Source: a virus
Strand: one strand, 5' to 3'
DNA: 64,000 nt
Virus record (IMG/VR): IMGVR_UViG_3300019458_000003
Span: 1-64,000 of that record
Shown: positions 21,997 through 60,041 of the stretch, in pieces
Numbering within the stretch: the first letter of the stretch is position 1
How the letters are laid out: the number at the start of each line of letters is the position of its first letter
The notes under the pieces: generated by a model
The model's input: the letters and a program-made list of their open reading frames with translations, nothing else
Databases searched by the model: none
What the model was told of the DNA's origin: nothing
Position numbers and translations under genes: made by a program

Positions 21997-22242
21997 TTAA
22001 TTCGCTCTCTTTTGTCCTTCATTCTTCTTTCCTGGATCCCCGAACCGCTTCAACAGATCCACGACGTGTTGTTTCTCAGTAGTGCTAAGCGCCTTCTTCC
22101 TCTCGAATAGCTGATATAACATTTTCGAGACAGCGGCAAGACTAAGACATAAAATACCTGGTCGCCCTGCTGCTATAACGACATATCCAGCATTTCCTTC
22201 TAGCTTCGTGATTTGCACTTCAAGGATTTGTTCTTGAGCCAT
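21997..22242 (-). CDS. Hypothetical protein
   Basis: Track ORF shortened to the ATG at 22242 (MAQEQILEV), which lies just after the upstream stop. Confidence 0.4.
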   Translation of the reverse strand: MAQEQILEVQITKLEGNAGYVVIAAGRPGILCLSLAAVSKMLYQLFERKKALSTTEKQHVVDLLKRFGDPGKKNEGQKRAN

Positions 22243-22246
22243 TTTC

Positions 22247-33079: not shown

Positions 33080-33979
33080 CTAAAATTCTCCTTCAGCGAC
33101 CTGCAAGCACGTTAGACCTTGCTCGCGCCACATGTCAACTACTTTCGAACGATCATCTAACACGAAGAGCACGTTGAATTTTCCCTTAATATAGGTCTCG
33201 TAAATCTCCTTCTTAACAATCGTATCGTCTCTCTTATCGGTTGCCCTCCGCATATAGATTCCATTGTGAGGGATACCGTGAGTAATCAACCATTCCCTTG
33301 TATGTTCTTTGTATATATCATCTCTTCCAGATACGATTATCACATGCACCGATGGTCTGCCATCCAGTCGATTATTCGATAGATGAAATTCTCGAACTAT
33401 CTCTGCTACAGAGTGATTCACCAAATCCTCTTTACATTTCTCTACGTCATAAGGACTCCGCCCATTCATTAAGGCTAAAGTCCCATCCATATCACAAATA
33501 ATCGCGTCCGGAACATTCATAATACGCTCAGAGAGAACAGGCGGTCCCTTCCGCAGGAATTGCCTGTACATCTGTCGAATCACCTTAGCTCCAACCCCAT
33601 TAGCCCTCATGGAGTCCCTTTTAATGCACTCATCCACCGAAGTAGAAAACTCTTTAATTTCCACCTCTACTTCTTCCAAACCCATTTCAGGGTCAGCTTG
33701 CGCAAGTTGTCTCATCCGAGCCTCGTGCTTCAGATGCAAATTTGTGTCATCCACAATCACACTATATCCTGCAGCCAAACACTTAATTACTAACTCGTCT
33801 CTAATTTTTAAGATAAATTTCTCGTTTTCTGTGCTCCACTCCCCGGCATCTAACATGGCTCTAAGTTCATCTTTATTGATTCTCTTGTAAACACCAGGAT
33901 TATCCTTGATCAATTGTCGAGCATAGGAAGTCTTTCCAGAGGCTGGAAGACCTTTAAGGAGCAGGATTTTTGACATCAT
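33080..33979 (-). CDS. Polynucleotide 5'-kinase / 3'-phosphatase (T4 Pnk-like)
   Basis: N-terminal P-loop GLPASGKTS and C-terminal HAD phosphatase motif IICDMDGTLA. At 299 aa it matches T4 Pnk in size and architecture. Confidence 0.85.
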   Translation of the reverse strand: MMSKILLLKGLPASGKTSYARQLIKDNPGVYKRINKDELRAMLDAGEWSTENEKFILKIRDELVIKCLAAGYSVIVDDTNLHLKHEARMRQLAQADPEMGLEEVEVEIKEFSTSVDECIKRDSMRANGVGAKVIRQMYRQFLRKGPPVLSERIMNVPDAIICDMDGTLALMNGRSPYDVEKCKEDLVNHSVAEIVREFHLSNNRLDGRPSVHVIIVSGRDDIYKEHTREWLITHGIPHNGIYMRRATDKRDDTIVKKEIYETYIKGKFNVLFVLDDRSKVVDMWREQGLTCLQVAEGEF

Positions 33980-34884
33980 CGTCCTCGTAGCGCAGATTGA
34001 AAGTATGCATTGAGCAATCGAGAAGTGGCCTTGGCAATAGCCTTCCTGACGTCGTTATTCCACACTATCTCTCCAGCGGCTTCTCGCTTTACATCTTCAA
34101 TCATCTCTGAAATGATCTCTCCGGTTTGTTTGACTTGTGGATTCTCTCTCTTCCCTAAGATATGATGAAGTCTCATAAGTGTAACCCATTCATCAGCAAT
34201 GGCGTTGGCGTTCTCCAATATTTGTAACTTCTCCGGAGATAAGACTGGTCGTGGCTTTGCAGTCTCCTTAAAGGCATCAGCTTTATGCTTAGCGATGACA
34301 CGTTTATCACCATTTGTCAACATTTCTTCGAGAGGTCTTATGATAATCCCCTCTCGTATCTTCGAATCTGAGATCCCATTCCTCCGCGCTTGAATCGAAG
34401 GATAATCTCTCTCAGCATCCAGGCACTCCACGGTAGCTGGCACCTTTTCATAAGCTACAAACTCTAGCCCTAAACTTTCAACCAATCGATGAGCGTTCGG
34501 TACATTTAGCCACCAATCTCCAATTTTAACATCGAAGGCTATAAATCTCAATTCCTTGCCATATGTAGCGCTCATCCCCTGCTGCTTGCCGCCATAGGCT
34601 TCTCCATAAATCGTCAGTTTATGCTTAACTCCCAATAGGTTGAACTTTGGCACTAACTCTGCCTCATTGAATAGCGCCAAGAACCGCTCTCGGTTCTCCC
34701 CGCCATTGAAGTAATGCACGTCAACTCTACTTGAGATCGCTTCTGGCTTACCAAACTCGAACGTGGTAACTGTTTCAAAGCTGATGTGGGCTGAGGTTCC
34801 ATGGATTTTCTCCAATGCGTATACCTCTTGAAATAATAATACTCTCTGATCTTTGTAGAGATTATCAATATGCAAATAGCCCAT
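33976..34884 (-). CDS. RNA ligase 2-like (Rnl2 family) nucleotidyltransferase
   Basis: Motif I LEKIHGTSAHISF (T4 Rnl2 has REKIHGTNFS). Start moved to the ATG at 34884, with GGGGAG 6 nt upstream. Confidence 0.7.
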   Translation of the reverse strand: MGYLHIDNLYKDQRVLLFQEVYALEKIHGTSAHISFETVTTFEFGKPEAISSRVDVHYFNGGENRERFLALFNEAELVPKFNLLGVKHKLTIYGEAYGGKQQGMSATYGKELRFIAFDVKIGDWWLNVPNAHRLVESLGLEFVAYEKVPATVECLDAERDYPSIQARRNGISDSKIREGIIIRPLEEMLTNGDKRVIAKHKADAFKETAKPRPVLSPEKLQILENANAIADEWVTLMRLHHILGKRENPQVKQTGEIISEMIEDVKREAAGEIVWNNDVRKAIAKATSRLLNAYFQSALRGR

Positions 34885-34920
34885 CTTAGCTCCCCATAGC
34901 AACGATGTTAAATCCCAATA

Positions 34921-36003
34921 TCATGCGACATCTTCATTTGTTACACGGAAGGGCTTGCTAGCTTTCGGTCTAACTCTCTTCCATATTGCTTGAGAATAAT
35001 CCTGATCGTCCAACATCTGGAATAAAATATCGGCGTACCTCGTCCGTACGAATGCCTCCGCAATCTCTTTTCGATTAACTTTCTTGTCCAAATTTTTGTA
35101 CCTTGCTCTAAGAAGAGTTAATAGTCCACCATAAAGATGGAGACACTCTTCCTCAATGAGAGAATACTGATTCCGAAGTCCAGCATCAACGACCTTTACC
35201 CACTGATAAAATTCGTCCGGGACTCTGTTCAGCAACTCTTCTAGACTTTCTCCCTCCTTGAGCATTTCCCAAATCGTCTTGCTATTTACCCCGAATACCA
35301 GGCGATGTAGCCGCCTATATTCTTCCCCCTTAACCTTGATTCTGAAACCATTTGGCCACTTAACTACGAAACCTTCTCGGTCGTTTGGCACAGTTTCCCT
35401 AAGATTTGATAAATCTGAGATTGCCTCAAGATGTGGGCGCACCATTGGAACGAAAGAAGGACAGTTTTCTAACAACGACAATTCTTCGCCTGTTTTAGTT
35501 TCGATAACAGCTAACATAAAGAGGTCATCAATGCTTCCATAATTCACGACGATTTGATTGTCCGGAAACACAATTTCAAATAAGTATGTAAACGCTGGAT
35601 TGAATTGAACGAATTTGTATTTGTCGTGTAAAACCTTAGTAGCATGGAGAGCTTGCTCCGACACAAAACTGCCCCTAGTCGCAATGAACGGCTTTCCCCC
35701 TACGAAGTATAAAATACCAAGACTACCATCTATCTTTTCATAAACTTCAAACTTTCCGCCAGGCAGAGCACCTTGATGCTCCTCCAAATTAAAGAATTTC
35801 TGAAATGGACGCGCTACGATATTAAAATTCAAATCCGTTATTAATCCCCGACATGCTACTGTTTCCGGCGTCCACATTCGTTCAAACTGAGTTCGATTGG
35901 TGTAGTTCCAAATAAGCAGAGGAAATGTTGGATGCTTCTGACACCCGATGTACCCCTGCTGCTGGAGAGTCAAAACTTTTTGGAAATCAATTTCCATAAC
36001 CAT
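34921..36003 (-). CDS. RNA ligase 1-like (T4 RnlA family)
   Basis: Motif I VYEKIDGSLGILY (KxDG). At 360 aa it is close to T4 Rnl1 in size. Confidence 0.7.
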   Translation of the reverse strand: MVMEIDFQKVLTLQQQGYIGCQKHPTFPLLIWNYTNRTQFERMWTPETVACRGLITDLNFNIVARPFQKFFNLEEHQGALPGGKFEVYEKIDGSLGILYFVGGKPFIATRGSFVSEQALHATKVLHDKYKFVQFNPAFTYLFEIVFPDNQIVVNYGSIDDLFMLAVIETKTGEELSLLENCPSFVPMVRPHLEAISDLSNLRETVPNDREGFVVKWPNGFRIKVKGEEYRRLHRLVFGVNSKTIWEMLKEGESLEELLNRVPDEFYQWVKVVDAGLRNQYSLIEEECLHLYGGLLTLLRARYKNLDKKVNRKEIAEAFVRTRYADILFQMLDDQDYSQAIWKRVRPKASKPFRVTNEDVA

Positions 36004-38437: not shown

Positions 38438-38650
38438 TTATTCTCCCATCAATTCGTGGTTTTCGTACAAATTACCAAGAATTTTGATTTCTCCGAGAAA
38501 GTCCGTTCTATGGTATCCCTTAGTTGTCCAAATACCCCACTCCAAGTTACCGAGCGTTTGGTCGTCATTCCAAATGACTTCGCCTATAACCCGTTCTCCC
38601 CCAATACCTGTATTATCAAATGAGACAATATCACTTCTCAGCCAGCCCAA
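38438..38650 (-). CDS. Hypothetical protein
   Basis: ORF track, 70 aa, abuts the next gene. Confidence 0.4.
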   Translation of the reverse strand: MGWLRSDIVSFDNTGIGGERVIGEVIWNDDQTLGNLEWGIWTTKGYHRTDFLGEIKILGNLYENHELMGE

Positions 38651-39902
38651 TGCGGCGGTGACTCAGTTCAATATATGCGGGTTGGAGTTCTAGTCCCACG
38701 AAGAAACGACCGAGTTTCACCGCGACGGCTCCGGTAGTTCCAGAGCCGCAGAATGGGTCGAGGACGGTGCAGGGGATGGTATCATCCTGACAAGAGCAGG
38801 TGGGCGACCAGCCCGTTGTCTTGGGAGGATTGGCGATGCGCTTCCTCGGTGCCCCACACGCCGCACAGCAGCCCTTCGTGCTAGTACCAGCCTTGATGCA
38901 GGGTTCGACCAGCTTCTCCGGGTAGGTGGCAAAGTGCGCCTCTTTGTAGGGCTGAGTGGTAATCGTCCAGACGGTGCGGAGGTTGCGGCCAGTATTCTTA
39001 TAAAACTCAGACTGTGGTTTACCCAATGCAGAATGATTTTTACTTCCAGGAGGTGTACTACGAAATCCTGTGATAGGTCGTTTACTTGAATTGATTTTGG
39101 CGTTTTTATAATCTTCCCGCACCGCCTCCTGGTCGAAGAAGTAGCGGGGCGACTTGGTCAGCAGGAACAGATATTCGTGCGACTTCGTAGGACGATCCGT
39201 GACGCTCTCTGGTATGGGATTCGGCTTCGCCCAGATGATGTCGCTGCGGAGATACCAGCCATCGGCTTGGAGGGCGAGGGCCACGCGCCAGGGGATGCCA
39301 ACGAGGTCTTTGGGTTTTAGGATAGGGTGATGTCCATCGCTAGGTCGCATGCGACCTGGCCCGCCCACATGAGCAGCTGGAGATGATAATGACTTGCCAG
39401 CAGCGACCCTCGCGGCCTGATACTCTGGACTGGAATGACCACTCTGACCCTTACCGCCCCAATACGAGTCACCGAGGTTCAAGAACATCACGCCGTCATC
39501 GCGTAGGACGCGCCGGACTTCTCGGAATACATCAACGATGTGCTTAACATACAACTCTGGCGTCGGCTCCGACCCCAATTCACCACGCCAGGCGCTGCAG
39601 GAACAAAAACGATCTGTATCAGACTTAAAAGCGCGGCCTGAGTTTCCTGGTTGCTCGCCGCGACTACCATAAACCTTCCCACCTCCTACACCGCCGGAAG
39701 CATCGCGTTGTGGAGATTGAGTTCTAATAGACGTTTCTCCCCATCCATGCTCATGTCCCGCTTCCCCACCCCAGACCTGCGGCTCGGTCTTATAGCTCCG
39801 CAGTCCCCAATAAGGCGGGGAGGTAACAACACAATGGACGCTGTTGTTAGGCATCGCTTTCAACAAATCTACCGCATGACCTTGTAATATTTCCCACACC
39901 AT
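38631..39902 (-). CDS. Beta-class N4-cytosine/N6-adenine DNA methyltransferase (SPPY type)
   Basis: Motif IV VVTSPPYWGLR near the N-terminus and motif I VLDPFCGSGTTGAVA near the C-terminus (N6_N4_Mtase order). SPPY is more typical of m4C enzymes. It has a large central insertion and GC-rich coding sequence by eye. Confidence 0.8.
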   Translation of the reverse strand: MVWEILQGHAVDLLKAMPNNSVHCVVTSPPYWGLRSYKTEPQVWGGEAGHEHGWGETSIRTQSPQRDASGGVGGGKVYGSRGEQPGNSGRAFKSDTDRFCSCSAWRGELGSEPTPELYVKHIVDVFREVRRVLRDDGVMFLNLGDSYWGGKGQSGHSSPEYQAARVAAGKSLSSPAAHVGGPGRMRPSDGHHPILKPKDLVGIPWRVALALQADGWYLRSDIIWAKPNPIPESVTDRPTKSHEYLFLLTKSPRYFFDQEAVREDYKNAKINSSKRPITGFRSTPPGSKNHSALGKPQSEFYKNTGRNLRTVWTITTQPYKEAHFATYPEKLVEPCIKAGTSTKGCCAACGAPRKRIANPPKTTGWSPTCSCQDDTIPCTVLDPFCGSGTTGAVAVKLGRFFVGLELQPAYIELSHRRIGLAEK

Positions 39903-43804: not shown

Positions 43805-44167
43805 TTAGTCATTCTTATTAAGAGTTGGCCACCTTACATCATCTGTACCTAACTTACGTCGCTCAAATATGATTAACGTCAAGGCGTGCCAAGCCAGGTG
43901 CGCTAAGTGATGGCATCCTGTTTCTGGATCAATCGATTCTCCTCCCACCCATCGCCAATAATGCCTTTGGAGAGCATGCGCACTTAAGGACCAATTATAT
44001 CCAAACCGATAATTAACTGGATTGTATTTTCTAGCTCCAACACCGTAAACCTTCCCCAATTCAAGCATCGCCTCTGGGGGTGCCCACGCAAGCTGCTCGA
44101 TCTTAGAACCTTTTGCCCCGCCGGTCTTCTCATCAACTACTCTTATTTCTCCGAAATTTTTATCCAT
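43805..44167 (-). CDS. DUF5664-like protein (dATP/dGTP diphosphohydrolase MazZ N-terminal-domain-like)
   Basis: 120 aa. KGSKIEQLAWAPPEAMLELGKVYGVGARKY..NYRFGYNWSLSAHALQRHYWRW..GESIDPETGCHHLAHLAWHALTLI follows the DUF5664 pattern as I recall it (GK.R.dLiP..al..la.vl.fGa.KY...NW..G...s....a..RH...w..Ge..D.esG..HLaHa..n..fl). Confidence 0.6.
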   Translation of the reverse strand: MDKNFGEIRVVDEKTGGAKGSKIEQLAWAPPEAMLELGKVYGVGARKYNPVNYRFGYNWSLSAHALQRHYWRWVGGESIDPETGCHHLAHLAWHALTLIIFERRKLGTDDVRWPTLNKND

Positions 44168-46641: not shown

Positions 46642-49278
46642 TTATTCGCCTTTCTTCATGGAGAATAGATCTTTGCCGACTTTAATCTCCACACCTAGAG
46701 GTACTTCCACACCAGGAATAGGCCTAGCCATCTCTCTTTTCATAATCTCCGTTACTTCGGGCACTAATTCATCAGGCGCTTCAGAAATAACAGAATCATG
46801 TACAGTCAAGACAGGGTGCGCTTGCGGGCATTCCTTCTCAAATGCCATATCTATCCGTACAAACGAAATAAACATAATGTGTGCCTCTAATCTTTGAATA
46901 GGAGCATTGACAGCACACCTTTCTGCGTGGCCTCTCATTTTAGGTTCAGCAGATATAATGTCTGGTAATCGTCGGCGTCCGCCAAATAAATCCGTCACGT
47001 ATCCTTTATCACGCGCCATTTGAATCATGCGACGTTCATAATTTTTGGTCCCTGGATAACGAGCCGAAAACTTATCTATCCACTCTTGAGCGGTATATTC
47101 TGGAACTCCAAATTCTTTACTCAATTTCCATGCGGACACTCCCATGATTACCGCATATACGAATGTCTTTGCCTGTTGCCTCTGTTCGAGCGTGATCTTC
47201 TCAGCAGGAATACCAAAAATTACTGACGCATTGATTCTATGTGGGTCGCGACCATTGATAATATCGTCTAGAAGCTGCGGATCTTTAGAATAATTAGCCC
47301 ATAGACGATATTGAATTTGGTTAAAATCTGCCTCAACTAGGCTGTGTCCTTCTTCTGCCACAAAGATCCTTCTAGCGCGGCTACCGATCGCCACTTGACC
47401 GGTAAGTGCATCCGATTCCAACCTATGGATGTTCTGCAAGTTAGGGTTCCTAGAACTTAATCTGTGCACTTCGGTTGCTATTAGACCGAATTTTGAATGA
47501 ATACGCCCATCTTTGCGAATAAAAGCCTCAAAATTCTCTCCGTAGGCTTCCACTAAATGGAGATGAGATCGATATTCCGTGATCATCTTGGGGATTTCAT
47601 GATCACGACCCAATATCGCCAACACTTTTTCATCTGTAGAATTAACACCATGCGGATGCTTCTGACTAGGCTTGGTTTTCTTGATCGGCTTCAATCCCAA
47701 GATATCAAACAATATCACTCGTAACTGAGTAGAAGATCCATAATTGATCTCCTCAAGACCAAGGATTTTCTTTGCCTGTTCTGTAACAGAATGAGCTTGT
47801 AACTGCCTATCGATATCGCTAGCTACAGCGTGGTACTCGTCTCGAATTTCTTTCAATCTCTGCCTATCGATCTTAATGCCACGCCACTCCATTTTACAGA
47901 GAGCGGATTGCATTGGCACAATGATACGCCTAAACAGATGAATCATTCCCTGTTCTTCGATCATTTTACAAAATAGCCGTCGTAACCTGCCAGTGGCATC
48001 GACGTCCGCAGCGGCGTATTTCCACAGAACCTCATATGGGATACGAGAGAAATCAACTACCGGTCCATCCGACATTAATTGCTCTCCTAGTGTCGCGTCA
48101 GGAGTTGGACCGTATTTCTCGACAATCCTCGTCTTCCACATATCAAGTTCAGTATCATAAGCCCCCATATCAGTGAATTTCAAAGCCAGCGGCTTAAGAC
48201 CGTTTGTCTTAGCATTCTCATCTAACAAACGGTGCATAACCAAGGTATCATAGGCATACTTATTAACTCCCAAGCCGCCGGTACCTAGCTCAGTTTTAAT
48301 GAACGGTATATCGAATGACCCCATATGTGCACATTTCGGCACCTCAGATTCAAAAAATTCCTTCAATCTTTCTCTGACGTAGTTATGTAATTCTCCCCAG
48401 AAGGGTTCCAATTCCGAATCTGGGTTCTTTCTCGTATATAACGGGACCACACGCCCCGACCCCTCATGGTTCGAGAACGCAAAGAAGATGATCTTGCGTA
48501 TATCTAGATCGAAACCAGTAGTTTCAAGGTCAAATTCCACCACTTCAGACTTCAACAATTCGTCAATCAGGCCATCAAATTGCTCTTTATTCTCAATAAC
48601 CTTGTAATCAGTAGGTCTGCGAGGCTTATCCCCCATAACAGGATCTTCTCCGCGAGAAACGGCTCTAGCCATTTTTAGATCGGAGACCAAATGGCCGTGG
48701 AGAACTTCGTCCCCTGCATTATGCAATAGATAGGAAGGATGGTACGCGGGAATAACTTTGCACTCAAATTCTTCTAGCATAAAAATAGTCCCGCGTACCT
48801 TAGTGATTCCGCTCTTCTTCAATAGAGCTTTCAAAGGCACATTGCCCAGAGGCACGATTACTTTAGGCTTAACTTTTAAGATCTCATGCACCAAATATGG
48901 CGCATCCTGAGCAATCTCTGCATCCGTCGGGACTCGATTTTCGGGTGGCCGGAAATGTCTCGCATTGGTCACATATATCTCTTCTCTCCGCAATCCTGCC
49001 TCTTCTAGGCATCGCATCAACAGTTTGCCCGACGCCCCTACGAACGGACGCCCCTGGCTGTCTTCTTCTGCACCTGGAGCTTCTCCGATAATCATCAAAT
49101 CAGATGGGGCTGGTCCTTCCCCATCCACAAATTTGGCTCCTTTAGGGGAGGAATCCGCACCCCAGATGGTCGCAGCTTCTAGCCCCTTGGGATGTTCGGT
49201 TAAAGCCCGTAAAACTGGTGACAATTTCGTAAGCGCTAATTGCTCTTCTGTTAGAGGGACAGTTGGTTTCTTAGTCAT
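46642..49278 (-). CDS. Family A DNA polymerase with N-terminal family-4 UDG-like domain and 3'-5' exonuclease domain
   Basis: UDG-like motifs IIGEAPGAEEDSQGRPFVGASGKLL and PAYHPSYLL, with no Fe-S Cys cluster seen. Exo I is VVEFDLETTG. Pol motif A is VEADFNQIQYRL, motif B RQQAKTFVYAVIMG and motif C LTVHDSVISE. Confidence 0.9.
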   Translation of the reverse strand: MTKKPTVPLTEEQLALTKLSPVLRALTEHPKGLEAATIWGADSSPKGAKFVDGEGPAPSDLMIIGEAPGAEEDSQGRPFVGASGKLLMRCLEEAGLRREEIYVTNARHFRPPENRVPTDAEIAQDAPYLVHEILKVKPKVIVPLGNVPLKALLKKSGITKVRGTIFMLEEFECKVIPAYHPSYLLHNAGDEVLHGHLVSDLKMARAVSRGEDPVMGDKPRRPTDYKVIENKEQFDGLIDELLKSEVVEFDLETTGFDLDIRKIIFFAFSNHEGSGRVVPLYTRKNPDSELEPFWGELHNYVRERLKEFFESEVPKCAHMGSFDIPFIKTELGTGGLGVNKYAYDTLVMHRLLDENAKTNGLKPLALKFTDMGAYDTELDMWKTRIVEKYGPTPDATLGEQLMSDGPVVDFSRIPYEVLWKYAAADVDATGRLRRLFCKMIEEQGMIHLFRRIIVPMQSALCKMEWRGIKIDRQRLKEIRDEYHAVASDIDRQLQAHSVTEQAKKILGLEEINYGSSTQLRVILFDILGLKPIKKTKPSQKHPHGVNSTDEKVLAILGRDHEIPKMITEYRSHLHLVEAYGENFEAFIRKDGRIHSKFGLIATEVHRLSSRNPNLQNIHRLESDALTGQVAIGSRARRIFVAEEGHSLVEADFNQIQYRLWANYSKDPQLLDDIINGRDPHRINASVIFGIPAEKITLEQRQQAKTFVYAVIMGVSAWKLSKEFGVPEYTAQEWIDKFSARYPGTKNYERRMIQMARDKGYVTDLFGGRRRLPDIISAEPKMRGHAERCAVNAPIQRLEAHIMFISFVRIDMAFEKECPQAHPVLTVHDSVISEAPDELVPEVTEIMKREMARPIPGVEVPLGVEIKVGKDLFSMKKGE

Positions 49279-51545
49279 TGAACCCTCGCACCTTCTATCG
49301 GAAATGCAATACGGTGATATCTACTCATTTCTTCTCTAGAACACTCAATCATTTTGTGAAAATCAGAAAAGAACCGATAATAGTGCCTACCTTTGAAGGA
49401 GGACGTACGATTTTTGTGTCCATAATTAATTTCAACAATGGGGTAAAAAATTTCCCCATCCAAAAATTTTAGGTCAGCGGATTCCATCCCTTGAGAGCCA
49501 ATATCATTGTACATCAACCCCAAGCTATCGGCATCATATTTTAGATCACTGGCTTCCTTTAAATCGTCGGCGGTAGGGCGCATGCCTTTCTGGTTTAGCT
49601 TTCGCAATTCTGCAGTAGCAAGTACCGGTATTTTAAAATCGTTTCTCCACCGTTTTAGCGCATCCGATATTTCAATCGTATCTTCTCGCATAGAAGAATG
49701 GAATTTCTTAGGGACCCTAATACGGTGCAGACTATCAATAATAACGACCAATTTACGGCCTTCTGCAATCTCCTTATAAGTACGTATGTATTTCTCAATG
49801 TCAGATATATTACGTACGTCTATTTCGTCCTTGATAGCCATATGACTCGACAAACTCCTAACTCGCTTAATTGCGTCTGAGTATTTGTCCATCAGACGCT
49901 GACGCTCCCCTTCGGTATATGCAGAATTGTTCAAAATTTTATATTTCGGATTCTTGACCGCATTGATTTCCAAACCCGATTCCATAGCTATCAACCGCGC
50001 AATCAATTCATCTGTAGTCTCATCAATAGAAACAAACAAAATAAAGGCTTTTTCCGGCTCGGCCTTTATCACATTCATAGCCAAATTCCGCGTAAATGCA
50101 CTTTTGCCTGTACCCTGTTCCCCCGCAAATAAATAAACCATATCTTGTAGCCCATCCATGTCTTCGGTGAAGATGGGAAATCCACAAGAAAGACCAAGGA
50201 GTTGCCCCCGATCTTTTGACAATTGCTCAAAATTCAAAACCGCCCTCTCAAAAAGCGACTTTTCACGCAATACATCCGCTGCCGTGATTAATACTTGGTC
50301 GCCTTCTTTTTCAATTATTTGGTCAAATTCTTTTTGTATAACCTCTAATCGCACATCTAATTCTTTCGCGGCCTTCTTGCACAACTGCTCTTGATCTATC
50401 CTGCTGCGCTCTAGGAGGATAGCCCGTAACGCCTTATCCCGATCTGATCGTGCATCCGTCTTTTTGTACTTTTCAATGTAGTGATCAAACATGGTTCGAC
50501 AATTGGAGGTAAGAAGAAAATCGTGTTTCTGGAGACACGCATCAGGGTCTTTACATTCATCCTTAACTTTAATACATATAGTTAGTCCATCCGTAGCTCT
50601 CAATCGACCCATAATCAAATCTTCTGCAGCAGAACCTGCAGCATCCGTATCCAAGCAAAGAATAATCGATTTGATGCCTTTCTTGGCCAATATTTTAACA
50701 TGGTCCGGGGTGAAAGAAGTGCCACACAATCCAACAACATTCTTAATACCTTTCTGATAAAGAGATACCACATCGGCTAGCCCCTCTACCACCCAAACCG
50801 AATCTCCCGATATTCGATATAAATTGTACAAGGTTTCAGACTTTTGATAGACCGATGAAGAACTTGAATTAATGTACTTAGGGCTTTCATCGTCCTTAAT
50901 CCATCGACTGGAGAACCCCACAACCCGACCATGAAAATCTTTAATCGGAAACAGCAAACGACGATCTAGCATTTCCTTATGGATGATTCCAGCCCGAATC
51001 ATCACATCAGTGGTATATCCCTTTTGAGATAAAATTTCAACTAATTTATCATAGCTGCAATATCCCAAGAGGAAATCTCCTGCTACAGATTCCCAACCGC
51101 GCCCCTTGACATAGGTCATAGCAGCCTCTGATTTCTTTAGCCCTTGATGAGCCAACTCAGCGGCCACCTTTAATACTTCATAAACCTGTGCCTTTTCTTT
51201 CTCTTCTGGTGTAGGTTCCTCAAATTCTACGGTCACTTTTAACAGATCAGCTAGATACAGCAACGTCTGAGGCACCCATTGAGGTCCATCCTTGGGCTTT
51301 TCTTCAAGCAGATGAGCGGCTAGAAAAATGTCACCATTCATGTTACATACAAAACAATGCCAACTCGATTCATCGGGAAAGAAACCACATGAAGGCTTCT
51401 CATCATTGTTTGCATGGAATGCCCGGTTAGGACACGAAAAGGATTGCCCATTAGAAGAAAAAGCCGTACCTGCCGTCTCTAGGTAGTTTCGTAGCTTAGG
51501 ACGAAGGCGCGACTTTAGTCCATTTATATCTTTGACCTTATTCAT
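49275..51545 (-). CDS. Bifunctional primase-helicase (T7 gp4-like)
   Basis: Zinc finger CPNRAFHANNDEKPSC...HCFVC, TOPRIM VVEGLADVVSL / LCLDTDAAGSAA, and DnaB-like Walker A GEQGTGKSAF. Confidence 0.9.
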   Translation of the reverse strand: MNKVKDINGLKSRLRPKLRNYLETAGTAFSSNGQSFSCPNRAFHANNDEKPSCGFFPDESSWHCFVCNMNGDIFLAAHLLEEKPKDGPQWVPQTLLYLADLLKVTVEFEEPTPEEKEKAQVYEVLKVAAELAHQGLKKSEAAMTYVKGRGWESVAGDFLLGYCSYDKLVEILSQKGYTTDVMIRAGIIHKEMLDRRLLFPIKDFHGRVVGFSSRWIKDDESPKYINSSSSSVYQKSETLYNLYRISGDSVWVVEGLADVVSLYQKGIKNVVGLCGTSFTPDHVKILAKKGIKSIILCLDTDAAGSAAEDLIMGRLRATDGLTICIKVKDECKDPDACLQKHDFLLTSNCRTMFDHYIEKYKKTDARSDRDKALRAILLERSRIDQEQLCKKAAKELDVRLEVIQKEFDQIIEKEGDQVLITAADVLREKSLFERAVLNFEQLSKDRGQLLGLSCGFPIFTEDMDGLQDMVYLFAGEQGTGKSAFTRNLAMNVIKAEPEKAFILFVSIDETTDELIARLIAMESGLEINAVKNPKYKILNNSAYTEGERQRLMDKYSDAIKRVRSLSSHMAIKDEIDVRNISDIEKYIRTYKEIAEGRKLVVIIDSLHRIRVPKKFHSSMREDTIEISDALKRWRNDFKIPVLATAELRKLNQKGMRPTADDLKEASDLKYDADSLGLMYNDIGSQGMESADLKFLDGEIFYPIVEINYGHKNRTSSFKGRHYYRFFSDFHKMIECSREEMSRYHRIAFPIEGARVQ

Positions 51546-51552
51546 GATAACA

Positions 51553-51582
51553 AGTATACCACATTGAGGGTTTATTTGTCAA
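51553..51582 (-). promoter_or_regulatory. Early sigma70-type promoter P3 (leaderless configuration)
   Basis: Minus strand: TTGACAAATAAACCCTCAATGTGGTATACT. The -10 ends 7 nt before the primase-helicase ATG at 51545, and no SD lies between them. Confidence 0.7.
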
Positions 51583-52394
51583 GATCTAGGAAACGCCCAC
51601 CCAAGAGGAAGCCCGGTTTCCTTAGCCCAATCTTCCGCCGCACATCGCTTTCTATGAGAACACATGTTACACTTATTGTAAGTAGGATCAAATTTCTTTT
51701 GCTCTATGGATTGCCATGTTTGGTCTATAACCTCTATGATTTGCCGATGATCAATATCGCTTCTGGTAGACCACCTGACCGACCCATACCTAGGATAAAA
51801 GAACCCGACACGGGTTTCCACTTCTTTCATAATCTGACGGACCGCCAAGCTATAAATAGTTAATTGGTCGTTTGTTTTTAACTCCTGATCGGTTACTTGA
51901 TAGGATCCCGTTTTGGTATCGATGATCCTCAAATCACCCCCTCTAGAGAAAGGTCTAACTATTAGATCAACAACTCCCACAATCAAGAATTGACGACCTG
52001 AAACAGCTTCGACCGGTAACTTAAATTTCCATTCTACCCCAACAGGTCTAATTAGAATCCCCTCCACTTTAGCCATTTCATGGAATTTTCTTAGTATATT
52101 GCATCCGATACGATCCCATCGTTTGGCCAACTCAGGGGTAGCAAATTTGTATTTCTCTAGAGCCAACTCTTCTTGATAAATTGAAGGCCAATTCGTTAAA
52201 AGGAAATCGCAACTAAAATCTTCCGATAGATACATCGCTTCAATGACCCGATGTGAAGCCCTCCCTACGATAGTTGATATATTCTTTGGATATTCGGGTT
52301 GATATTTGGCAACCCTAGTGTATTTATAGTTTCTAGGGCACCATTTATACAAAAATAAATCTGAGTAAGAGAATCTATTTCTCTCATTCTCCAT
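51579..52394 (-). CDS. Cas4/RecB-like PD-(D/E)xK exonuclease with 4-Cys cluster
   Basis: N-terminal Cys (YKWCPRNY), VVDLIV and IIDTKTG nuclease motifs, and C-terminal CNMCSHRKRC. Confidence 0.65.
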   Translation of the reverse strand: MENERNRFSYSDLFLYKWCPRNYKYTRVAKYQPEYPKNISTIVGRASHRVIEAMYLSEDFSCDFLLTNWPSIYQEELALEKYKFATPELAKRWDRIGCNILRKFHEMAKVEGILIRPVGVEWKFKLPVEAVSGRQFLIVGVVDLIVRPFSRGGDLRIIDTKTGSYQVTDQELKTNDQLTIYSLAVRQIMKEVETRVGFFYPRYGSVRWSTRSDIDHRQIIEVIDQTWQSIEQKKFDPTYNKCNMCSHRKRCAAEDWAKETGLPLGWAFPRS

Positions 52395-52755: not shown

Positions 52756-52990
52756 TCATTGCATCCAATACATCGTTATAACCAATCACGCCTTGAGTTT
52801 TGTCAGACATAGTGGTCATGGATTCGGACAATTCAGAGCAGGTGGCTATTTCTTCCACCCCATAGCCAAATTTTTTATACTCCTTGACCTTAGAACCGAA
52901 GAGCCAATACATGGCCGATTCTCCGCGTTTAGGGCCGGACTGGATCGCGATTTTATAAAGCTTAGGATACGAAATCGTTTTAGTCTTCAT
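52715..52990 (-). CDS. Hypothetical protein
   Basis: ORF track, 91 aa. Confidence 0.4.
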   Translation of the reverse strand: MKTKTISYPKLYKIAIQSGPKRGESAMYWLFGSKVKEYKKFGYGVEEIATCSELSESMTTMSDKTQGVIGYNDVLDAMIDLYLFGGCRDVE

Positions 52991-53298
52991 TCAGGAAATT
53001 CCCGCTCAAACAATCTCCTAGCTTCTAGCCAATCAACCACTTTACTATTTTCTATTTCAAAGTCCGCCTCCGGCAACCGAGCAACAAGGTCTCTTTTTAG
53101 CTCCTGGTAGTAAGCCATAGCCTCATTCTCAGACGCTCCGAAGAACAACAACAGCGCAAGAGCCAATTGGCTTGGACCACTTCCCCCGTAGCCCCACATA
53201 AACTCTGAGCTATAATCCCGCACCCCTCTACTAAACTTAGGGTCCAATACCACATCGTCAATAGTTACTTTATATTCGTTATAAACGCCTTTAATCAT
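52987..53298 (-). CDS. Hypothetical protein, paralogue B of the WGYGGSG...ALALLL family
   Basis: 103 aa with WGYGGSGPSQLALALLLFFGASENEAMAYYQ. It is a paralogue of 55574..55873. Confidence 0.55.
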   Translation of the reverse strand: MIKGVYNEYKVTIDDVVLDPKFSRGVRDYSSEFMWGYGGSGPSQLALALLLFFGASENEAMAYYQELKRDLVARLPEADFEIENSKVVDWLEARRLFEREFPE

Positions 53299-53825
53299 CT
53301 GTCACTCACCAGCCTTGTTTGCACATGTCGTACCAAATCCCCCGCACCCGCCTTATTACCAAGAATCTGTAAATCAAACATCGGTATCAAATTCCTCATC
53401 TTTAGATCAATGGCACGAGCCTCTGTCTCGGTCTGAAATCGCCCACGAGGATTATAGCATTTAGTTCTAATCACTTCTACATTCAAGCTATGTTGCTCTG
53501 CATGGAAAGATTTAACTGCTTCGATGAACGCTCTAGGGGAGGACTCAGGCGCGTAAAAAGCCGAAAGCAATATTGGGCTGTCTGTAATAACAACCCGCAC
53601 CTTTCCTATTAATCGCTGTATACGCCATAGTTGTTGTCCGAAAACATAAGGTTGGCATTGAAGTGGGCCGTGGTGTTCCTCCCAAGCCAACTCCTTAGCA
53701 AATTCTGTCACTAACTCAATATCCACACTTTGCTCTTTGAGTTCGGCAAAAGCCATGGCTGCTACGGTGGATTTCCCCGCGCCGGGACCAGCAAACAAAT
53801 TAACTACCAGAGTATCAAAGGCCAT
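53295..53825 (-). CDS. P-loop NTPase or (deoxy)nucleotide kinase-like protein
   Basis: 176 aa with Walker A FAGPGAGKST and VVITDSP (Walker B-like). Size and layout resemble a small nucleotide kinase or AAA_28-like protein. Confidence 0.5.
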   Translation of the reverse strand: MAFDTLVVNLFAGPGAGKSTVAAMAFAELKEQSVDIELVTEFAKELAWEEHHGPLQCQPYVFGQQLWRIQRLIGKVRVVITDSPILLSAFYAPESSPRAFIEAVKSFHAEQHSLNVEVIRTKCYNPRGRFQTETEARAIDLKMRNLIPMFDLQILGNKAGAGDLVRHVQTRLVSDR

Positions 53826-53831
53826 TTTCTC

Positions 53832-54464
53832 TCAATCTACATATTTAACTTCTCGATGAATCGCTTCTGGATTTTGCGCAATCTGCTCCAACAAATCCGC
53901 GATCATTCCAGGGCAAGTGTTGAACCCCTGATTATTATACTTGAGCATTCTCCTAACTGTAGAGACTCCATAGGTCACCTTGTGAATCGCTAGTCGCCGC
54001 CTGGCCAAATCCCATAAAGTATTCTGACCAACCATCAACGTTTTCCCATCTGTTAGAGCTTGACATATCGTGAAGTCGAAGAAATCTAACACGTCTTCGG
54101 GCTTAGAATAATACATCATGCGTACGATCTGGATTTTGATTTGTGTGTCTTTGTCAATCTGCCAAAGATAGTCAGAAACACGACCTTCTTTCTTACCGAG
54201 AAGCTTTACTTCCCCCATTTTAGATACAACCTCTTCAACCTTATCAGCTTGAATTTCATCTTCAAAGAAGAGATCAAGGTCTGTACCTTTCATATCTTCT
54301 GCTGCTAAGGTTCTACGAACTGCCCCACCCGCTAGCCAAGGACCGCCTTCCATTTTAAGGATTACTCCCGCATCAGAGAGCTTAGCAATCAAAGACAACA
54401 ACAGAATGTCTTCTGTATCGTAAGATCGACCCAAAAAGTGTCGAAAATCGTAAATATGCCACAT
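53832..54464 (-). CDS. Minimal nucleotidyltransferase-fold protein (CCA-adding / poly(A) polymerase head-domain-like)
   Basis: 210 aa. WLAGGAVRRTLAAEDMKGTDLDLFF matches the GGxVRDxLLGxxxxDxD signature of the PolyA_pol head domain. Confidence 0.5.
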   Translation of the reverse strand: MWHIYDFRHFLGRSYDTEDILLLSLIAKLSDAGVILKMEGGPWLAGGAVRRTLAAEDMKGTDLDLFFEDEIQADKVEEVVSKMGEVKLLGKKEGRVSDYLWQIDKDTQIKIQIVRMMYYSKPEDVLDFFDFTICQALTDGKTLMVGQNTLWDLARRRLAIHKVTYGVSTVRRMLKYNNQGFNTCPGMIADLLEQIAQNPEAIHREVKYVD

Positions 54465-55574
54465 CTAAAACAAGTCCTTTTTATACAATGGGATAATGTT
54501 TTGGAAGCCAGTGCTGACCCACAAGATGGGAGCGCCAGCATCTTTTTCAAATTTCTTAATCTGCTCCATGGCGTCGGAGTCCAGTATGTTTTTGTTCGCT
54601 AAATCGGGTCTTTCATAATCAAAGAAACTGAGAATTATAGCGTCTGCGTTGGTAATCTCTACCGCATATCGCGCCCAATCCGGGTTCCACTTAGCGATCC
54701 GGCGAATACGCTTCGTCACCGTCGTTCGTTCAGGTTGAATGTAACCACCCGATTGTTCCGATAGCTGCTCCCAAGTGACTTCTTGTCCAATATCTCCTGA
54801 ATTTCCTGCAACTCGGATGGGGTAAGTTCGCATAACTAATATCACAGAGTGTGGAAAATTTGAAGGGAGGCCAGCATCAGCTAATACTTGACCGGGAACA
54901 ATGTCTCGTGAGGTCGTGAAAGGGTATTGCGGACCATTTAATGATAACATGACACCTTGTGTAGATTCAACCAAAACAGCAGTATCCTTGGCTCTAACTT
55001 GCGCCCTTAATATGGCTCCTACATCAGCCACGTAATCCTTAAACTCTTCGAGTTCCTTAAAGACCTTAGCACGGCGCATTACTTTATCAGCTTGAGCCGC
55101 CCCCACTCCTTCGGCTGTAGAGCCAATCTTAGCATTCATGCCGTCTTGAACTTCCATATCATGATGTTTAGGCTCGATCACAGTGGCATGACGGTCTATC
55201 CACAATCTACCAAGCAGATTGCCCTTGCCAAGCTCTGCCTCTACCCACCCAATTTCACGTCTCAAAACCTCCGGATTGACAAGAGAGCCAGGACCTAAAT
55301 ATAGCTGTGCATCGGGGTTAATCCAACCCACAGGGACCTGCTGCATGGCATAAGCTTTTCCCCGATATTTCACGTAGTGACCAGCGTTAGGACCACCAGT
55401 TCGTACAACGGAGAGTTTAGGCAGATCTAGTAATCGATTAATATTGTCCGGGTTATGTGGATCAGACAGATAGCCAACCGCCGAACCTTTTGCTTCCGAC
55501 CCTGCCAACCCACCCATAATTACCGTAATGGGACTATAACAAATATTCTTTATAGCCTCTCTTCTATTTCCCAT
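54465..55574 (-). CDS. purZ: PurZ-like adenylosuccinate synthetase homologue (candidate N6-succino-2-amino-2'-deoxyadenylate synthase)
   Basis: Motif-by-motif match to PurA: GSEAKGS (PurA GDEGKGK, Asp to Ser), GGPNAGH (GGHNAGH), IGSTAEGVGA (IGTTGRGIGP), ESTQG (EGAQG), PFTTS (PYVTSS), TTVTKRIRR (ATTGRRRR) and VSTGF (ISTGP). Start moved to the ATG at 55574, with GGAGG 10 nt upstream. Confidence 0.75.
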   Translation of the reverse strand: MGNRREAIKNICYSPITVIMGGLAGSEAKGSAVGYLSDPHNPDNINRLLDLPKLSVVRTGGPNAGHYVKYRGKAYAMQQVPVGWINPDAQLYLGPGSLVNPEVLRREIGWVEAELGKGNLLGRLWIDRHATVIEPKHHDMEVQDGMNAKIGSTAEGVGAAQADKVMRRAKVFKELEEFKDYVADVGAILRAQVRAKDTAVLVESTQGVMLSLNGPQYPFTTSRDIVPGQVLADAGLPSNFPHSVILVMRTYPIRVAGNSGDIGQEVTWEQLSEQSGGYIQPERTTVTKRIRRIAKWNPDWARYAVEITNADAIILSFFDYERPDLANKNILDSDAMEQIKKFEKDAGAPILWVSTGFQNIIPLYKKDLF

Positions 55575-55873
55575 TAGTTGTAGTCCTCCCTCGCTTCTAC
55601 TTCTCTCCACCCACCTTTACCCGCGTATTGTCCTGTTTGTTCATCCTTGAGGGGAGCAATTACTTCTTCTTTAAAACCCTGATACCACGAAAGAGCTTCA
55701 CTCTCTGTCGCGCCAAAATGTAGCAGGAGTGCCAATGCTGTTTGAGCACAACCACTCCCTCTGTAGCCCCAACTCAGACCAGTCGGGGGGTGTGCTCGTA
55801 CTTTTAGGCTCCGCTCTAGGAGGATTTCTGTACCGTCGTGGTAGAGCTTGTTAGTCTGATAATCGCCTGTAAT
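55574..55873 (-). CDS. Paralogue A of the WGY(R/G)GSG...ALALLL family, lacking a canonical start codon
   Basis: Hand translation: (I)ITGDYQTNKLYHDGTEILLERSLKVRAHPPTGLSWGYRGSGCAQTALALLLHFGATESEALSWYQGFKEEV...EDYN. It aligns over its full length with 52987..53298 (MIKGVYNEY...). The aligned start position is ATA-ATT, and the stop forms TAATG with the purZ start. Confidence 0.45.
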   Translation of the reverse strand: MTGDYQTNKLYHDGTEILLERSLKVRAHPPTGLSWGYRGSGCAQTALALLLHFGATESEALSWYQGFKEEVIAPLKDEQTGQYAGKGGWREVEAREDYN

Positions 55874-56229
55874 TATAGTCTCACACTACGCGGCTTAATT
55901 CTATCCTTCTTTTTGTCTGCCTCGTATGCGAATTGTTTTGCTTCCTCTGATAGTTGAACTAGTTTTCTCAGATAACGATGATAATTCGACCCACACTCGT
56001 TCACTTTACAATCATGTGGAATAAAACTTTCCCTGCTAACGTTCATATATGGGATAATGAGAGCAAATCGGTAATCAGGAAATGTCCTCTTTAGAGCAAT
56101 AGCCAAAGGACAAGAATCTGCTCGATAATAGGAAGTTATTTTCCGTTCCCTATACTCCCTACTGATTCTCTTTGCTTCTCGAATATCTGACGCCTTGACT
56201 TCGATTATCATTCCTGAGAGTTCAATCAT
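55873..56229 (-). CDS. Hypothetical protein
   Basis: ORF track, 118 aa. Confidence 0.5.
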   Translation of the reverse strand: MIELSGMIIEVKASDIREAKRISREYRERKITSYYRADSCPLAIALKRTFPDYRFALIIPYMNVSRESFIPHDCKVNECGSNYHRYLRKLVQLSEEAKQFAYEADKKKDRIKPRSVRL

Positions 56230-57101: not shown

Positions 57102-57323
57102 TCATTTCTTCGTCTTTATTCCGCGCTGCTCAATTTGCTTCATGGAGGAAACAAGACCGACTCTAAAGAGGTCAATAGCTGCTGATATAGCTCTTGAAAG
57201 CCCAATACATTCATCAGCCGTTACTTTGTGCTCCACAAGCCAATCAGTACTGAACGGGTCTCTACACTCGTCAAATGCTTCTGCTGCCTGTTCGAGAAGG
57301 AAGTCTAGTCGCTTTGAGGTCAT
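57102..57323 (-). CDS. Hypothetical protein
   Basis: ORF track, 73 aa. Confidence 0.45.
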   Translation of the reverse strand: MTSKRLDFLLEQAAEAFDECRDPFSTDWLVEHKVTADECIGLSRAISAAIDLFRVGLVSSMKQIEQRGIKTKK

Positions 57324-57754
57324 TTTACACCTTTTCGGTTTAGCTCACGCATTTTCTCAAAAATCTTATACGGTCTCCTATCATTAGGAGCATAGCCTGG
57401 CCTGTGCTCCTTCAAAAGTCTCAACGCCTCAAGAAGAAGTGTCGCCTGTTTCCTCTTGATAATCAAATATGGAAGTATTGTAGGAAGTAATTGTCTAATC
57501 CTATTTGCATAGATAGAAGCCCGATACAGGGACTTCTCATTGTGTTTGTTCCGTTTCTCAAATCTTATCTTTCCACCTGCCAATAGGACAAAATACTCTA
57601 TGAACTCTCGACTAGTATTGCCGATAGTAACTACAGGTATTAGGGAGAATCCTCGTCTATTTCGTGGTTCTGCCATCCTGGTAAGTCCAATATGTCCTTC
57701 CCCATCTATAGCACAAGCTAACCATGTTAAATCAACCCTTGACAAAGTGCTCAT
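57320..57754 (-). CDS. Free-standing single-motif LAGLIDADG homing endonuclease
   Basis: LTWLACAIDGEGHIGL matches LAGLIDADG (LAGFIDGEG). 144 aa, consistent with a homodimeric I-CreI-type enzyme. Confidence 0.7.
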   Translation of the reverse strand: MSTLSRVDLTWLACAIDGEGHIGLTRMAEPRNRRGFSLIPVVTIGNTSREFIEYFVLLAGGKIRFEKRNKHNEKSLYRASIYANRIRQLLPTILPYLIIKRKQATLLLEALRLLKEHRPGYAPNDRRPYKIFEKMRELNRKGVK

Positions 57755-59507: not shown

Positions 59508-60041
59508 TTACGGACTACCGACGCTGGCGCATTCAACTTCATTCCCCCATACATCCCATCCGGGGGAGGTCTGTCGAGCAAACAACTCTATTCTACTCGC
59601 TTTTGGAAACATCTGCTCTATTCTTTTTCTAACTTCTTCAGGCTTTTTAGAGTGGAACGTTCTAGTTACTTCAACATACTGCTTCACATTTCTTGCTCCA
59701 TATGGGAGAGGAACCTTACCCTTCTTAAATAGGAGCACAAATTCACAGTAAGTCATATTGTACATCCCTACAACTGGCAACCTTTTATTCCATACAAAAG
59801 CCACAGTGCTATACTTAAAACCCCACCCATTGGCGCAATTAAAAGCAAATTCAAGGTGTCGGGCAGGGCTCCAGAGAAACAGTAGACAGTTTTCGTCCGC
59901 TACTTCTCGAATGACAGGAAAGCTCAAAAGTTGCCCCTTAGTCATGCATGGGTAGTGGTTGGTAGGGGAACTGCCGCTGGCCATTGTAGAGTTTTCAGGC
60001 CACGGCGGGTCTGCGTAGATGATTTGGTATTTCCTAGCCAT
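59508..60041 (-). CDS. MT-A70-family N6-adenine methyltransferase
   Basis: IIYADPPWPE (DPPW catalytic motif) near the N-terminus, then HYPCM, LFLW and HSKKPEE, as in the MT-A70 / phage Dam-like family. Confidence 0.75.
   Translation of the reverse strand: MARKYQIIYADPPWPENSTMASGSSPTNHYPCMTKGQLLSFPVIREVADENCLLFLWSPARHLEFAFNCANGWGFKYSTVAFVWNKRLPVVGMYNMTYCEFVLLFKKGKVPLPYGARNVKQYVEVTRTFHSKKPEEVRKRIEQMFPKASRIELFARQTSPGWDVWGNEVECASVGSP

Follow-up and report, generated by a model that had tools for sequence, protein, structure and literature searches.

Here we analyzed a 64-kb stretch of phage DNA (positions 1 to 64,000 of the IMG/VR record IMGVR_UViG_3300019458_000003, hereafter the window) around an open reading frame (ORF) for a PurZ-family enzyme, and find that this phage probably carries a DatZ-less toolkit of the PurZ0 type, in which a nucleotidyltransferase (NTase) gene and a kinase gene next to purZ would be accessory and not parts of the pathway. 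PurZ catalyzes the key step in replacing adenine by 2-aminoadenine (Z) in DNA, and Z-genome phages are of interest both for restriction evasion and for synthetic biology. A motif-based reading of the same DNA, the original prediction, had grouped purZ, the NTase and the kinase into one Z-base module with non-canonical partners, bracketed by paralogous genes; the PurZ identity stood up to our analysis, while neither the partners nor the recombination footprint seen in the paralogues did. The window covers 64 kb of a 95,360-bp contig, of which the remaining ~31 kb lie outside the analysis, and for each of the three focal ORFs an identical protein is on record once, on this same contig. The genes at the center of this work are as follows.

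54465..55574, - strand: PurZ0-like succino-amino-deoxyadenylate synthase, as predicted (369 aa; Pfam PF00709, E = 4e-38; PHROG 1211, E = 9e-66)
53832..54464, - strand: predicted class II nucleotidyltransferase (Pol-beta superfamily), head-neck domain standing alone (210 aa; motifs GGAVRR...DLDLFF)
53295..53825, - strand: P-loop kinase-fold protein, AAA_28 family (176 aa; motif GPGAGKST; AAA_28, E = 2.8e-6)
52987..53298, - strand: DUF6166 copy a (103 aa, ATG start, intact; PF19663, E = 4.7e-16)
55574..55876, - strand: DUF6166 copy b (PF19663, E = 1.1e-16; probably decaying)

A PurZ-family enzyme on the PurZ0 side

The purZ ORF starts with an ATG preceded by the Shine-Dalgarno sequence GGGAGGA 9 nt upstream, and a longer version with a GTG start extends to 55610. 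As the original prediction had noted, the protein carries the motifs of adenylosuccinate synthetase (PurA) with one telling replacement in the P-loop. The latter reads GGLAGSEAKGSAVG, i.e., a GSEAKG core in which Ser takes the place of the Asp13 seen in the PurA of E. coli and Pyrococcus (GDEGKG). This Ser is present in all of the 120 best metagenomic homologues of the window PurZ. Across the family, 100% of phage PurZ and PurZ0 have Ser instead of Asp, which is kept in 99% of PurA (PMC12884076), and the mutation S14D abolishes substrate selectivity (metaGPA preprint, bioRxiv 10.1101/2025.10.22.683976). PHROG 1211, for its part, is named “2-aminooxy adenylosuccinate synthetase”.

To compare further residues, we aligned the window PurZ with 12 annotated references, 119 metagenomic homologues, and P. 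horikoshii PurA (taken from the PDB-search alignment). Numbered as in VpPurZ, the window enzyme has S14, T262, W252, P233, F295, and Y298, and T262, W252, and P233 agree with PurZ and PurZ0 but not with PurA. In the PDB, the best match was the PurZ0 of Gordonia phage Archimedes (7VF6, E = 6.6e-48), tied with P. horikoshii PurA (1e-47) and followed by the PurZ of phiVC8 (1e-28) and of S-2L (3.5e-26), and the alignments to 7VF6, 5K7X, and 6FM1 were full-length.

A phylogeny including cellular PurA and known PurZ, which had been proposed as a check, placed the window enzyme with PurZ0. In this neighbor-joining (NJ) tree (59 taxa, 339 columns, 100 bootstraps), the innermost clade joins the window PurZ with four other metagenomic sequences (bootstrap 100), the next clade has 22 members (bootstrap 97), and the outer clade adds the PurZ0 of Archimedes, Ghobes, and Wayne together with a homologue from Streptomyces phage Hiyaa (bootstrap 99). 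Classic PurZ forms a separate group, and the PurA of P. horikoshii and E. coli fall outside. Because of the Ser, T262, W252, and P233 residues, the best PDB match, the NJ clade, and the Ser distinction drawn in the literature, we file ORF 54465..55574, as judged from its sequence, as a PurZ-family enzyme on the PurZ0 side and not as a cellular PurA. By its position in the tree, it is assigned to an uncharacterized metagenomic lineage that groups with actinophage PurZ0.

The nucleoside triphosphate (NTP) pocket of this lineage is a hybrid. Position 297 is Asp in the window PurZ (motif SFFDY), as it is in PurZ0 and PurA, while classic PurZ has Asn or Gln there, and this residue (N297/Q308) reads the adenine of ATP (PMC8342488). 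The combination F-D-Y at VpPurZ positions 295/297/298 occurs in 93 of the 119 metagenomic Ser-type homologues, and F-N-Y in 22. The majority state of the pocket is thus represented by neither characterized subtype, i.e., neither PurZ (F-N-Y) nor PurZ0 (M/F-D-Q). Should the enzyme be expressed, knowing whether it prefers ATP or GTP as donor would help to map the transition from PurZ0 to PurZ.

Alternatively, ORF 54465..55574 could be an additional adenylosuccinate synthetase of the PurA type, raising AMP production in the infected cell, in a phage with ordinary adenine in its DNA. Profile scores lend this reading some weight: the NCBIfam PurZ model NF038379, which was built on classic PurZ, gave 234.1 bits, under its 300-bit cut-off, and the archaeal PurA model NF003295 gave about the same score (240.9 bits), also under its cut-off (368). 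P. horikoshii PurA is moreover as close as PurZ0 in the PDB search, the Asp at the guanine-recognizing position of the NTP pocket is kept as in GTP-dependent PurA, and the window enzyme has Ala at the VpPurZ F12 position, where close relatives have F or W. However, the Asp13-to-Ser replacement, the three PurZ-type residues, and the bootstrap of 99 with PurZ0 all speak against a PurA, as does the presence in the same genome of a predicted DUF5664 dATP/dGTP pyrophosphohydrolase and of a nucleoside 2-deoxyribosyltransferase (NDT)-family protein (see below), and we regard the PurA reading as very unlikely.

A probable DatZ-less toolkit elsewhere in the window

Three further genes that the original prediction had overlooked belong to the types of genes known from Z phages.

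43805..44167, - strand: DUF5664 (dGTP_diPhyd_N) protein, predicted dATP/dGTP pyrophosphohydrolase (120 aa; PF18909, E = 2.4e-26; PHROG 801, E = 1.7e-32)
46642..49278, - strand: fusion of a uracil-DNA glycosylase (UDG)-like domain, a 3'-5' exonuclease, and a family-A DNA polymerase (878 aa; PF03167, PF01612, PF00476)
24086..24592, - strand: NDT-superfamily protein (168 aa; its own Pfam matches are weak, E ~1e-3)

The DUF5664 gene lies 10 kb from purZ, and its product is homologous to gp51 of Arthrobacter phage Wayne (E = 1.9e-19), which we take to be the Wayne DUF5664 protein characterized in the literature. The Wayne DUF5664 protein hydrolyzes dATP and dGTP to monophosphates (PMC12884076). The polymerase shows the same architecture and the same position relative to purZ in all three of the long relatives (loci L001, L003, and L006), and its best cultured matches are SPO1-like phages, at 27–30% identity over 87–95% of the length. 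As a side observation, Z phages may use this UDG-exonuclease-PolA fusion as a polymerase of a third lineage.

For the NDT-like ORF, a profile of 60 homologues matched the NDT structure 2A0K (E = 1.4e-7), PF15891 was found in 44 and PF05014 in 37 of these 60 homologues, and the protein retains the invariant Glu of the GTxxE motif. A PHROG scan of the ORF returned nothing, and no similarity to Wayne DmtZ could be detected. Overall, we consider ORF 24086..24592 a candidate equivalent, in this phage, of the NDT/DmtZ found in dZ phages. Adenylosuccinate synthetase, dGTP_diPhyd_N, PolA/exonuclease, UDG, and NDT domains have all been statistically associated with dZ-modified contigs (metaGPA preprint, bioRxiv 10.1101/2025.10.22.683976).

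Other known components were searched for in the window and not found. The absence of an HD-domain DatZ, as first seen by eye, held in our scans: no HD_3, YfbR, or HD Pfam match was obtained among - strand ORFs of at least 60 aa, and the DatZ of S-2L and phiVC8 used as phmmer queries had no match among the six-frame ORFs of the 64 kb. No MazG-type/DUF550 MazZ adjoins purZ, and nothing matched S-2L MazZ. For DutZ, neither a dUTPase Pfam match (- strand ORFs of at least 60 aa) nor a phmmer match with Wayne or Archimedes DutZ was found in the 64 kb. The closest relatives (L019..L023) likewise have no DutZ within 10 kb, while 63 of 80 wider relatives do, which suggests a DutZ-less sub-lineage. A DatZ of the S-2L or phiVC8 type was absent from all 80 viral loci with PurZ-like genes (L019..L098, IMG/VR). 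Because DatZ-less toolkits made up of DUF5664, DutZ, and the NDT-family DmtZ are already described for PurZ0 phages (PMC12884076), the missing DatZ calls for no new partners.

From these components, a route to Z-DNA can be proposed. PurZ, by analogy with its family, would condense dGMP with aspartate to succino-2-amino-deoxyadenylate, which host PurB and host kinases would convert to dZTP. The DUF5664 pyrophosphohydrolase would turn dGTP into dGMP, the substrate of PurZ, and at the same time destroy dATP, and the NDT-superfamily protein may dispose of dAMP or dA. The UDG-exonuclease-PolA fusion would replicate the genome, and Z is predicted to be present in virion DNA. As far as the 64 kb are concerned, the toolkit would be DatZ-less and of the PurZ0 type, with no DutZ.

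The NTase and the kinase

The NTase gene follows purZ and the kinase gene follows the NTase gene, an arrangement described correctly in the original prediction, and all three are on the - strand and tightly packed. The NTase was modeled by AlphaFold2 (pLDDT 93.5), and the residues G46, G47, R50, D62, and D64 are invariant across its family. By sequence, it is tied to Gad2, an experimentally validated anti-Gabija protein of Bacillus phage SPbetaL7 that served as our reference (bioRxiv 10.1101/2023.05.01.538930). A precomputed Pfam match to PF26128 (“Gad2”) exists on a database protein identical to the NTase (P0121), the NTase family profile aligned to residues 23-164 of the 400 residues of SPbetaL7 Gad2 in hhalign (probability 98.4, E = 1e-14), and BLASTP gave 22% identity (E = 5e-8). 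The two share the motifs AGGA, DxDxxF, and FDFT[IV]C, and both are phage-borne accessory genes, but the window NTase has 210 aa against 400 aa and is without the whole C-terminal half. By homology, we therefore describe the NTase as a short homologue of the N-terminal NTase domain of Gad2, most likely with a role as a counter-defense or RNA/nucleotide-modifying enzyme.

In structure, the NTase resembles a different set of enzymes. In Foldseek, the model matched class II CCA-adding enzymes over their head and neck (3H39, E = 1.8e-7, TMq 0.60, TMt ~0.34), and it also matched many uncharacterized phage proteins. With CCA-adding enzymes and poly(A) polymerases (PAP; T. maritima 3H39, E. coli PAP 3AQL) it shares the head-neck fold, the GGxxR motif, and the DxD catalytic carboxylates, but not the body and tail domains, and identity is 13–20% with a sequence-profile E-value of only 0.04. 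The NTase could, on this basis, be a minimal tRNA 3'-end (CCA) repair or tailing enzyme that acts with Pnkp and RNA ligases of the phage against tRNA-targeting host defenses, rather than a Gad2-like anti-Gabija factor. Its best solved structural matches are indeed CCA-adding enzymes, A-adding enzymes, and poly(A) polymerase, one member of the NTase family matches PF01743, and Pnkp and two RNA ligases are encoded in the window (33080..36003). However, the 210 residues make up only head and neck, with no tRNA-binding body or tail domains (hence the low TMt against targets of ~415 residues), ~18 kb separate the NTase from the RNA-repair genes, RNA-ligase homologues occur at only 3 of 80 NTase loci, and no tRNA genes were found in the 64-kb window, which speaks against CCA repair. 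Since the sequence homology of the NTase is with Gad2, we consider a tRNA-repair role unlikely.

The kinase model (pLDDT 94.8) adopts a P-loop nucleoside/nucleotide-kinase fold, for which Foldseek returned thymidylate kinase (TMPK), adenosine 5'-phosphosulfate (APS) kinase, and deoxynucleoside kinase (dNK) (TM 0.5–0.62). The protein matches PHROG 2107, “thymidylate kinase” (7e-6), and the best PDB match of its family profile is the deoxyadenosine/deoxyguanosine kinase of M. mycoides (2JAS, E = 1e-4). With AAA_28/dNK-like kinases (2JAS and thymidylate kinases) it has in common the Walker A GxGKST, an E-x-V...W segment that aligns with dNK, and the kinase fold, but E-values reach only ~1e-4. The family carries inconsistent annotations (thymidylate kinase, AAA ATPase, NadR-like) and is not known to have been tied to Z phages, and homologues occur in large phages of Caulobacter and Synechococcus, in Rhizobium large phages, and in Lak phages, none of them known as Z phages. 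The most likely reading of fold and family is a kinase of general function that acts on (deoxy)nucleosides or nucleotides.

The NTase and kinase are rarely found with PurZ

Operon-like packing in a phage early region is insufficient to call neighbors pathway partners, and we relied on association counts, in which DutZ as a positive control tells real partners from hitchhikers. DutZ is itself found in 98 of 98 PurZ0 genomes (PMC12884076). Four loci (L001, L003, L005, and L006) encode close relatives of the window PurZ, at 57–64% identity. In L003, purZ is followed by a DUF6166 gene and then by a homologue of orf91, with nothing in between; in L001, purZ is followed by an NTase gene, with neither kinase nor DUF6166; L005 and L006 have neither NTase nor kinase. 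Across the four close relatives, the NTase was thus found once and the kinase not at all.

The same pattern was observed at larger scale. In a forward survey of 80 IMG/VR loci with a PurZ-like gene, covering up to 10 kb on each side, the NTase family was detected at 2 loci and the kinase at 1, while the same procedure recovered DutZ homologues at 63, PolA at 41, DUF5664 at 10, and DatZ at none. The DutZ count shows that the method is able to detect real partners. In a reverse survey of 80 NTase loci and 80 kinase loci, a PurZ-family gene was found at 1 NTase locus (the L001 phage again) and at no kinase locus, both families being widespread in phages without PurZ. Beyond 2–4 cases at chance level, no window gene co-traveled with the NTase or kinase families across these 160 viral loci. 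We also considered whether NTase and kinase might form a two-gene module of their own and rejected this as a general rule, as the two families were within 10 kb of each other on only 3 distinct contigs. The sole near-adjacent pairing outside the window was on a 102-kb viral contig (L203 9950..12054), where 540 bp separate a gene of the kinase family from an ORF of the NTase family (328 aa).

These counts bear directly on the original prediction, by which purZ, NTase, and kinase would be one functional module and an undescribed variant of the Z toolkit, with the kinase phosphorylating dZMP, dGMP, or dG and the NTase acting on a nucleotide or RNA step. The trio genes are tightly packed or overlapping in a single orientation, with no separate promoter or terminator signal above chance around them; the NTase adjoins purZ in the L001/L023 phage as it does in the window; the best solved relative of the kinase profile is a deoxyadenosine/deoxyguanosine kinase; and neither DatZ nor DutZ was found in the 64 kb. 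On the other hand, the kinase is missing from all four close relatives and the NTase from three of them, both are scarce at PurZ-like loci and PurZ is scarce at theirs, both families are common in phages without PurZ, tight packing is the norm for this whole - strand genome, and DUF5664, NDT, PolA, and host enzymes would already account for the whole pathway. A joint role of the three genes in Z synthesis is thus improbable.

A narrower version would tie the accessory pair to Z-DNA synthesis in this lineage. The dNK-like kinase would then feed dG, dZ, or dZMP and free the phage from host GMP kinase, and the Gad2-like NTase would shield a phage that hydrolyzes dATP and dGTP from defenses that sense nucleotide depletion, such as Gabija. 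Separately, the lineage might represent a third type of Z toolkit, with an F-D-Y PurZ, DUF5664 only, an NDT protein, and the SPO1-like UDG-PolA as a third independently recruited Z polymerase. To this combined alternative, too, we give little credence.

The NTase and kinase genes are instead best read, from their distribution, as a 1.2-kb accessory insertion in a conserved purZ/DUF6166/orf91 backbone. The Gad2-like NTase and the AAA_28 kinase, whose genes separate purZ from the DUF6166 gene downstream, would be mobile accessory genes of a hyperplastic early region, and neither would be required for Z synthesis.

Taken together, we consider it likely that the window encodes a PurZ-family enzyme with a DatZ-less PurZ0-type toolkit, to which the NTase and kinase are accessory. 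Several observations nonetheless count against this, in addition to the profile scores and the Ala at the F12 position on which the PurA alternative draws. The tree was built by NJ only, and the phosphate donor is not predictable from the F-D-Y hybrid of the NTP pocket. The polymerase is only 21.6% identical to the DpoZ of phiVC8 and 22.6% to that of Wayne, and falls into neither described DpoZ clade. A DatZ or DutZ may be encoded in the remaining ~31 kb of the contig. Finally, in two phages with PurZ proteins of only 57% identity, the NTase gene comes right after purZ, which leaves room for a lineage-specific functional link, and the weak dNK resemblance of the kinase would fit a part in supplying purine deoxynucleotides.

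Gene packing and the DUF6166 paralogues

The genes around purZ leave almost no intergenic space. The purZ start overlaps the stop of the upstream DUF6166 copy b (TAATG), the NTase ATG comes directly after the purZ stop TAG, a 6-nt spacer separates the NTase and kinase genes, and the kinase stop overlaps the start of DUF6166 copy a (ATGA). Promoter and terminator signals between 51.5 and 57.5 kb were no more or less frequent than in shuffled sequence and give no evidence either way on sub-operons. PADLOC returned no matches for the trio, both DUF6166 paralogues, or three neighboring ORFs.

The small paralogous genes reported on both sides of the trio do match one family, DUF6166, which is almost absent from cultured phages, and they are 41% identical at the amino acid level over 78 aa (E = 9e-17). 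They had been taken as marks of insertion or duplication by recombination, an interpretation that we rejected since no nucleotide similarity between the copies was found. Copies a and b are instead two distinct orthologue types, each of which is single in relatives. Copy a is 57% identical to the L003 copy and belongs to the short type, which in L003 lies directly downstream of purZ; copy b resembles a longer orthologue located 3–4 kb upstream of purZ in L005 and L006. This points to an old duplication with, presumably, differential loss among lineages, and not to a recent recombination footprint.

In copy b, none of the start codons ATG, GTG, and TTG is present. The gene reads ATA ATT ACA GGC where orthologues have ATG AT[AT] A[AC]G GG[AC], i.e., the start has changed from ATG to ATA at an ATGA-type overlap with the stop of the preceding gene, which is now ATAA. 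Compared to the orthologues in L003, L005, and L006, the conserved Pro of GSGP is replaced by Cys (GSGC), an internal deletion has removed ~12 aa, and the C-terminus is divergent. Copy b is probably either in decay or dependent on re-initiation for its expression.

Genomic setting

The substantial ORFs of the window are all on the - strand, G+C content is ~45%, GC skew is negative throughout, and tight gene packing extends over the whole genome. Gene content is that of a tailed phage, with a primase-helicase, RecA, RuvC, an SbcCD-like nuclease, and the family-A polymerase, along with Pnkp, two RNA ligases, two DNA methyltransferases, and proteins with Laminin_G_3 (concanavalin A-like lectin) domains. 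No DNA-level match among cultured phages was obtained by megablast with 15 kb of the window, and a metagenome scan with the terminal ORF of the window yielded only a 42% relative, located on a 2-kb contig. Overall, we read the window as the part of an uncultured phage genome that holds its replication and early genes. Between purZ and the polymerase, and elsewhere in the window, the following features were annotated.

49275..51545, - strand: primase-helicase (Pfam DNAG_N, Toprim, DnaB_C)
51579..52394, - strand: PD-(D/E)XK nuclease (Pfam PDDEXK_1)
33080..36003, - strand: RNA-repair set, Pnkp (AAA_33 + HAD_PNKP) and then two ligases (RNA_ligase, RNA_lig_T4_1)

The order purZ, PD-(D/E)XK nuclease, primase-helicase, UDG-PolA is kept in L001, L003, and L006, so that the primase-helicase and the nuclease are a conserved replication backbone that joins purZ to the polymerase.

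Further genes of the window deserve mention in their own right. The two DNA methyltransferases (38631..39902 and 59508..60041, - strand) are of the N6_N4_Mtase and MT-A70 families and, in a phage predicted to swap adenine for 2-aminoadenine, may have Z, C, or host DNA as their target. An unusual run of cargo genes (20076..23110, - strand) comprises an ATPase of the AAA+ type (20076..21437), a membrane protein of the MgtC family (21434..21874), and a trypsin-like protease (22247..23110). A 144-aa ORF (57320..57754, - strand) shows by eye a LAGLIDADG-like motif, AIDGEGHIGL, and is possibly a homing endonuclease; it had no Pfam match at E 0.001.

Comparison with known Z systems

Among known systems, the closest is the PurZ0 toolkit of actinophages (Gordonia phages Archimedes and Ghobes, Arthrobacter phage Wayne; 7VF6; PMC12884076). 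Both have GSEAKG with its Ser and an Asp at the NTP-base position, both are without DatZ (in the window phage, as far as the 64 kb go), and both combine a DUF5664 pyrophosphohydrolase with an NDT-superfamily gene and a family-A polymerase close to purZ. They differ in that the window PurZ is only 31–37% identical and has F and Y at VpPurZ positions 295/298, where PurZ0 has M/F and Q. Unlike PurZ0 phages, the window phage is without DutZ in the 64 kb seen, its NDT protein is not detectably related to DmtZ, and its polymerase includes a UDG-like domain and shows ~22% identity to DpoZ-1. The actinophage genomes are also smaller, 43–45 kb compared to ~95 kb at 45% G+C.

Classic PurZ shares with the window enzyme the Ser at Asp13, T262, P233, W252, F295, Y298, and the same predicted reaction, but has GSTGKG instead of GSEAKG, is 30–32% identical, and carries Asn or Gln rather than Asp at the adenine-selecting position 297. 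The classic Z cluster (datZ-mazZ-purZ, DpoZ) differs further, as the window, in the part seen, has neither an HD DatZ nor a MazG/DUF550 MazZ, and its Z-related genes are unclustered. The polymerase has its counterpart in the SPO1-type UDG-PolA (gp31 of Bacillus phage SPO1 and relatives), with the same architecture of UDG-like domain, 3'-5' exonuclease, and PolA but only 27–30% identity. SPO1-like phages replace T by hydroxymethyluracil, and not A by Z.

Given that DUF5664, PolA, and NDT are already known as components of dZ phages, and that DatZ-less toolkits have been described, what the window adds to the PurZ/PurZ0 family is a divergent uncultured lineage of ~95 kb with a hybrid NTP pocket, an SPO1-type UDG-polymerase, and neither DatZ nor DutZ in the part seen. 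This lineage agrees with recent reports that the accessory enzymes of the Z pathway have been recruited repeatedly and interchangeably.

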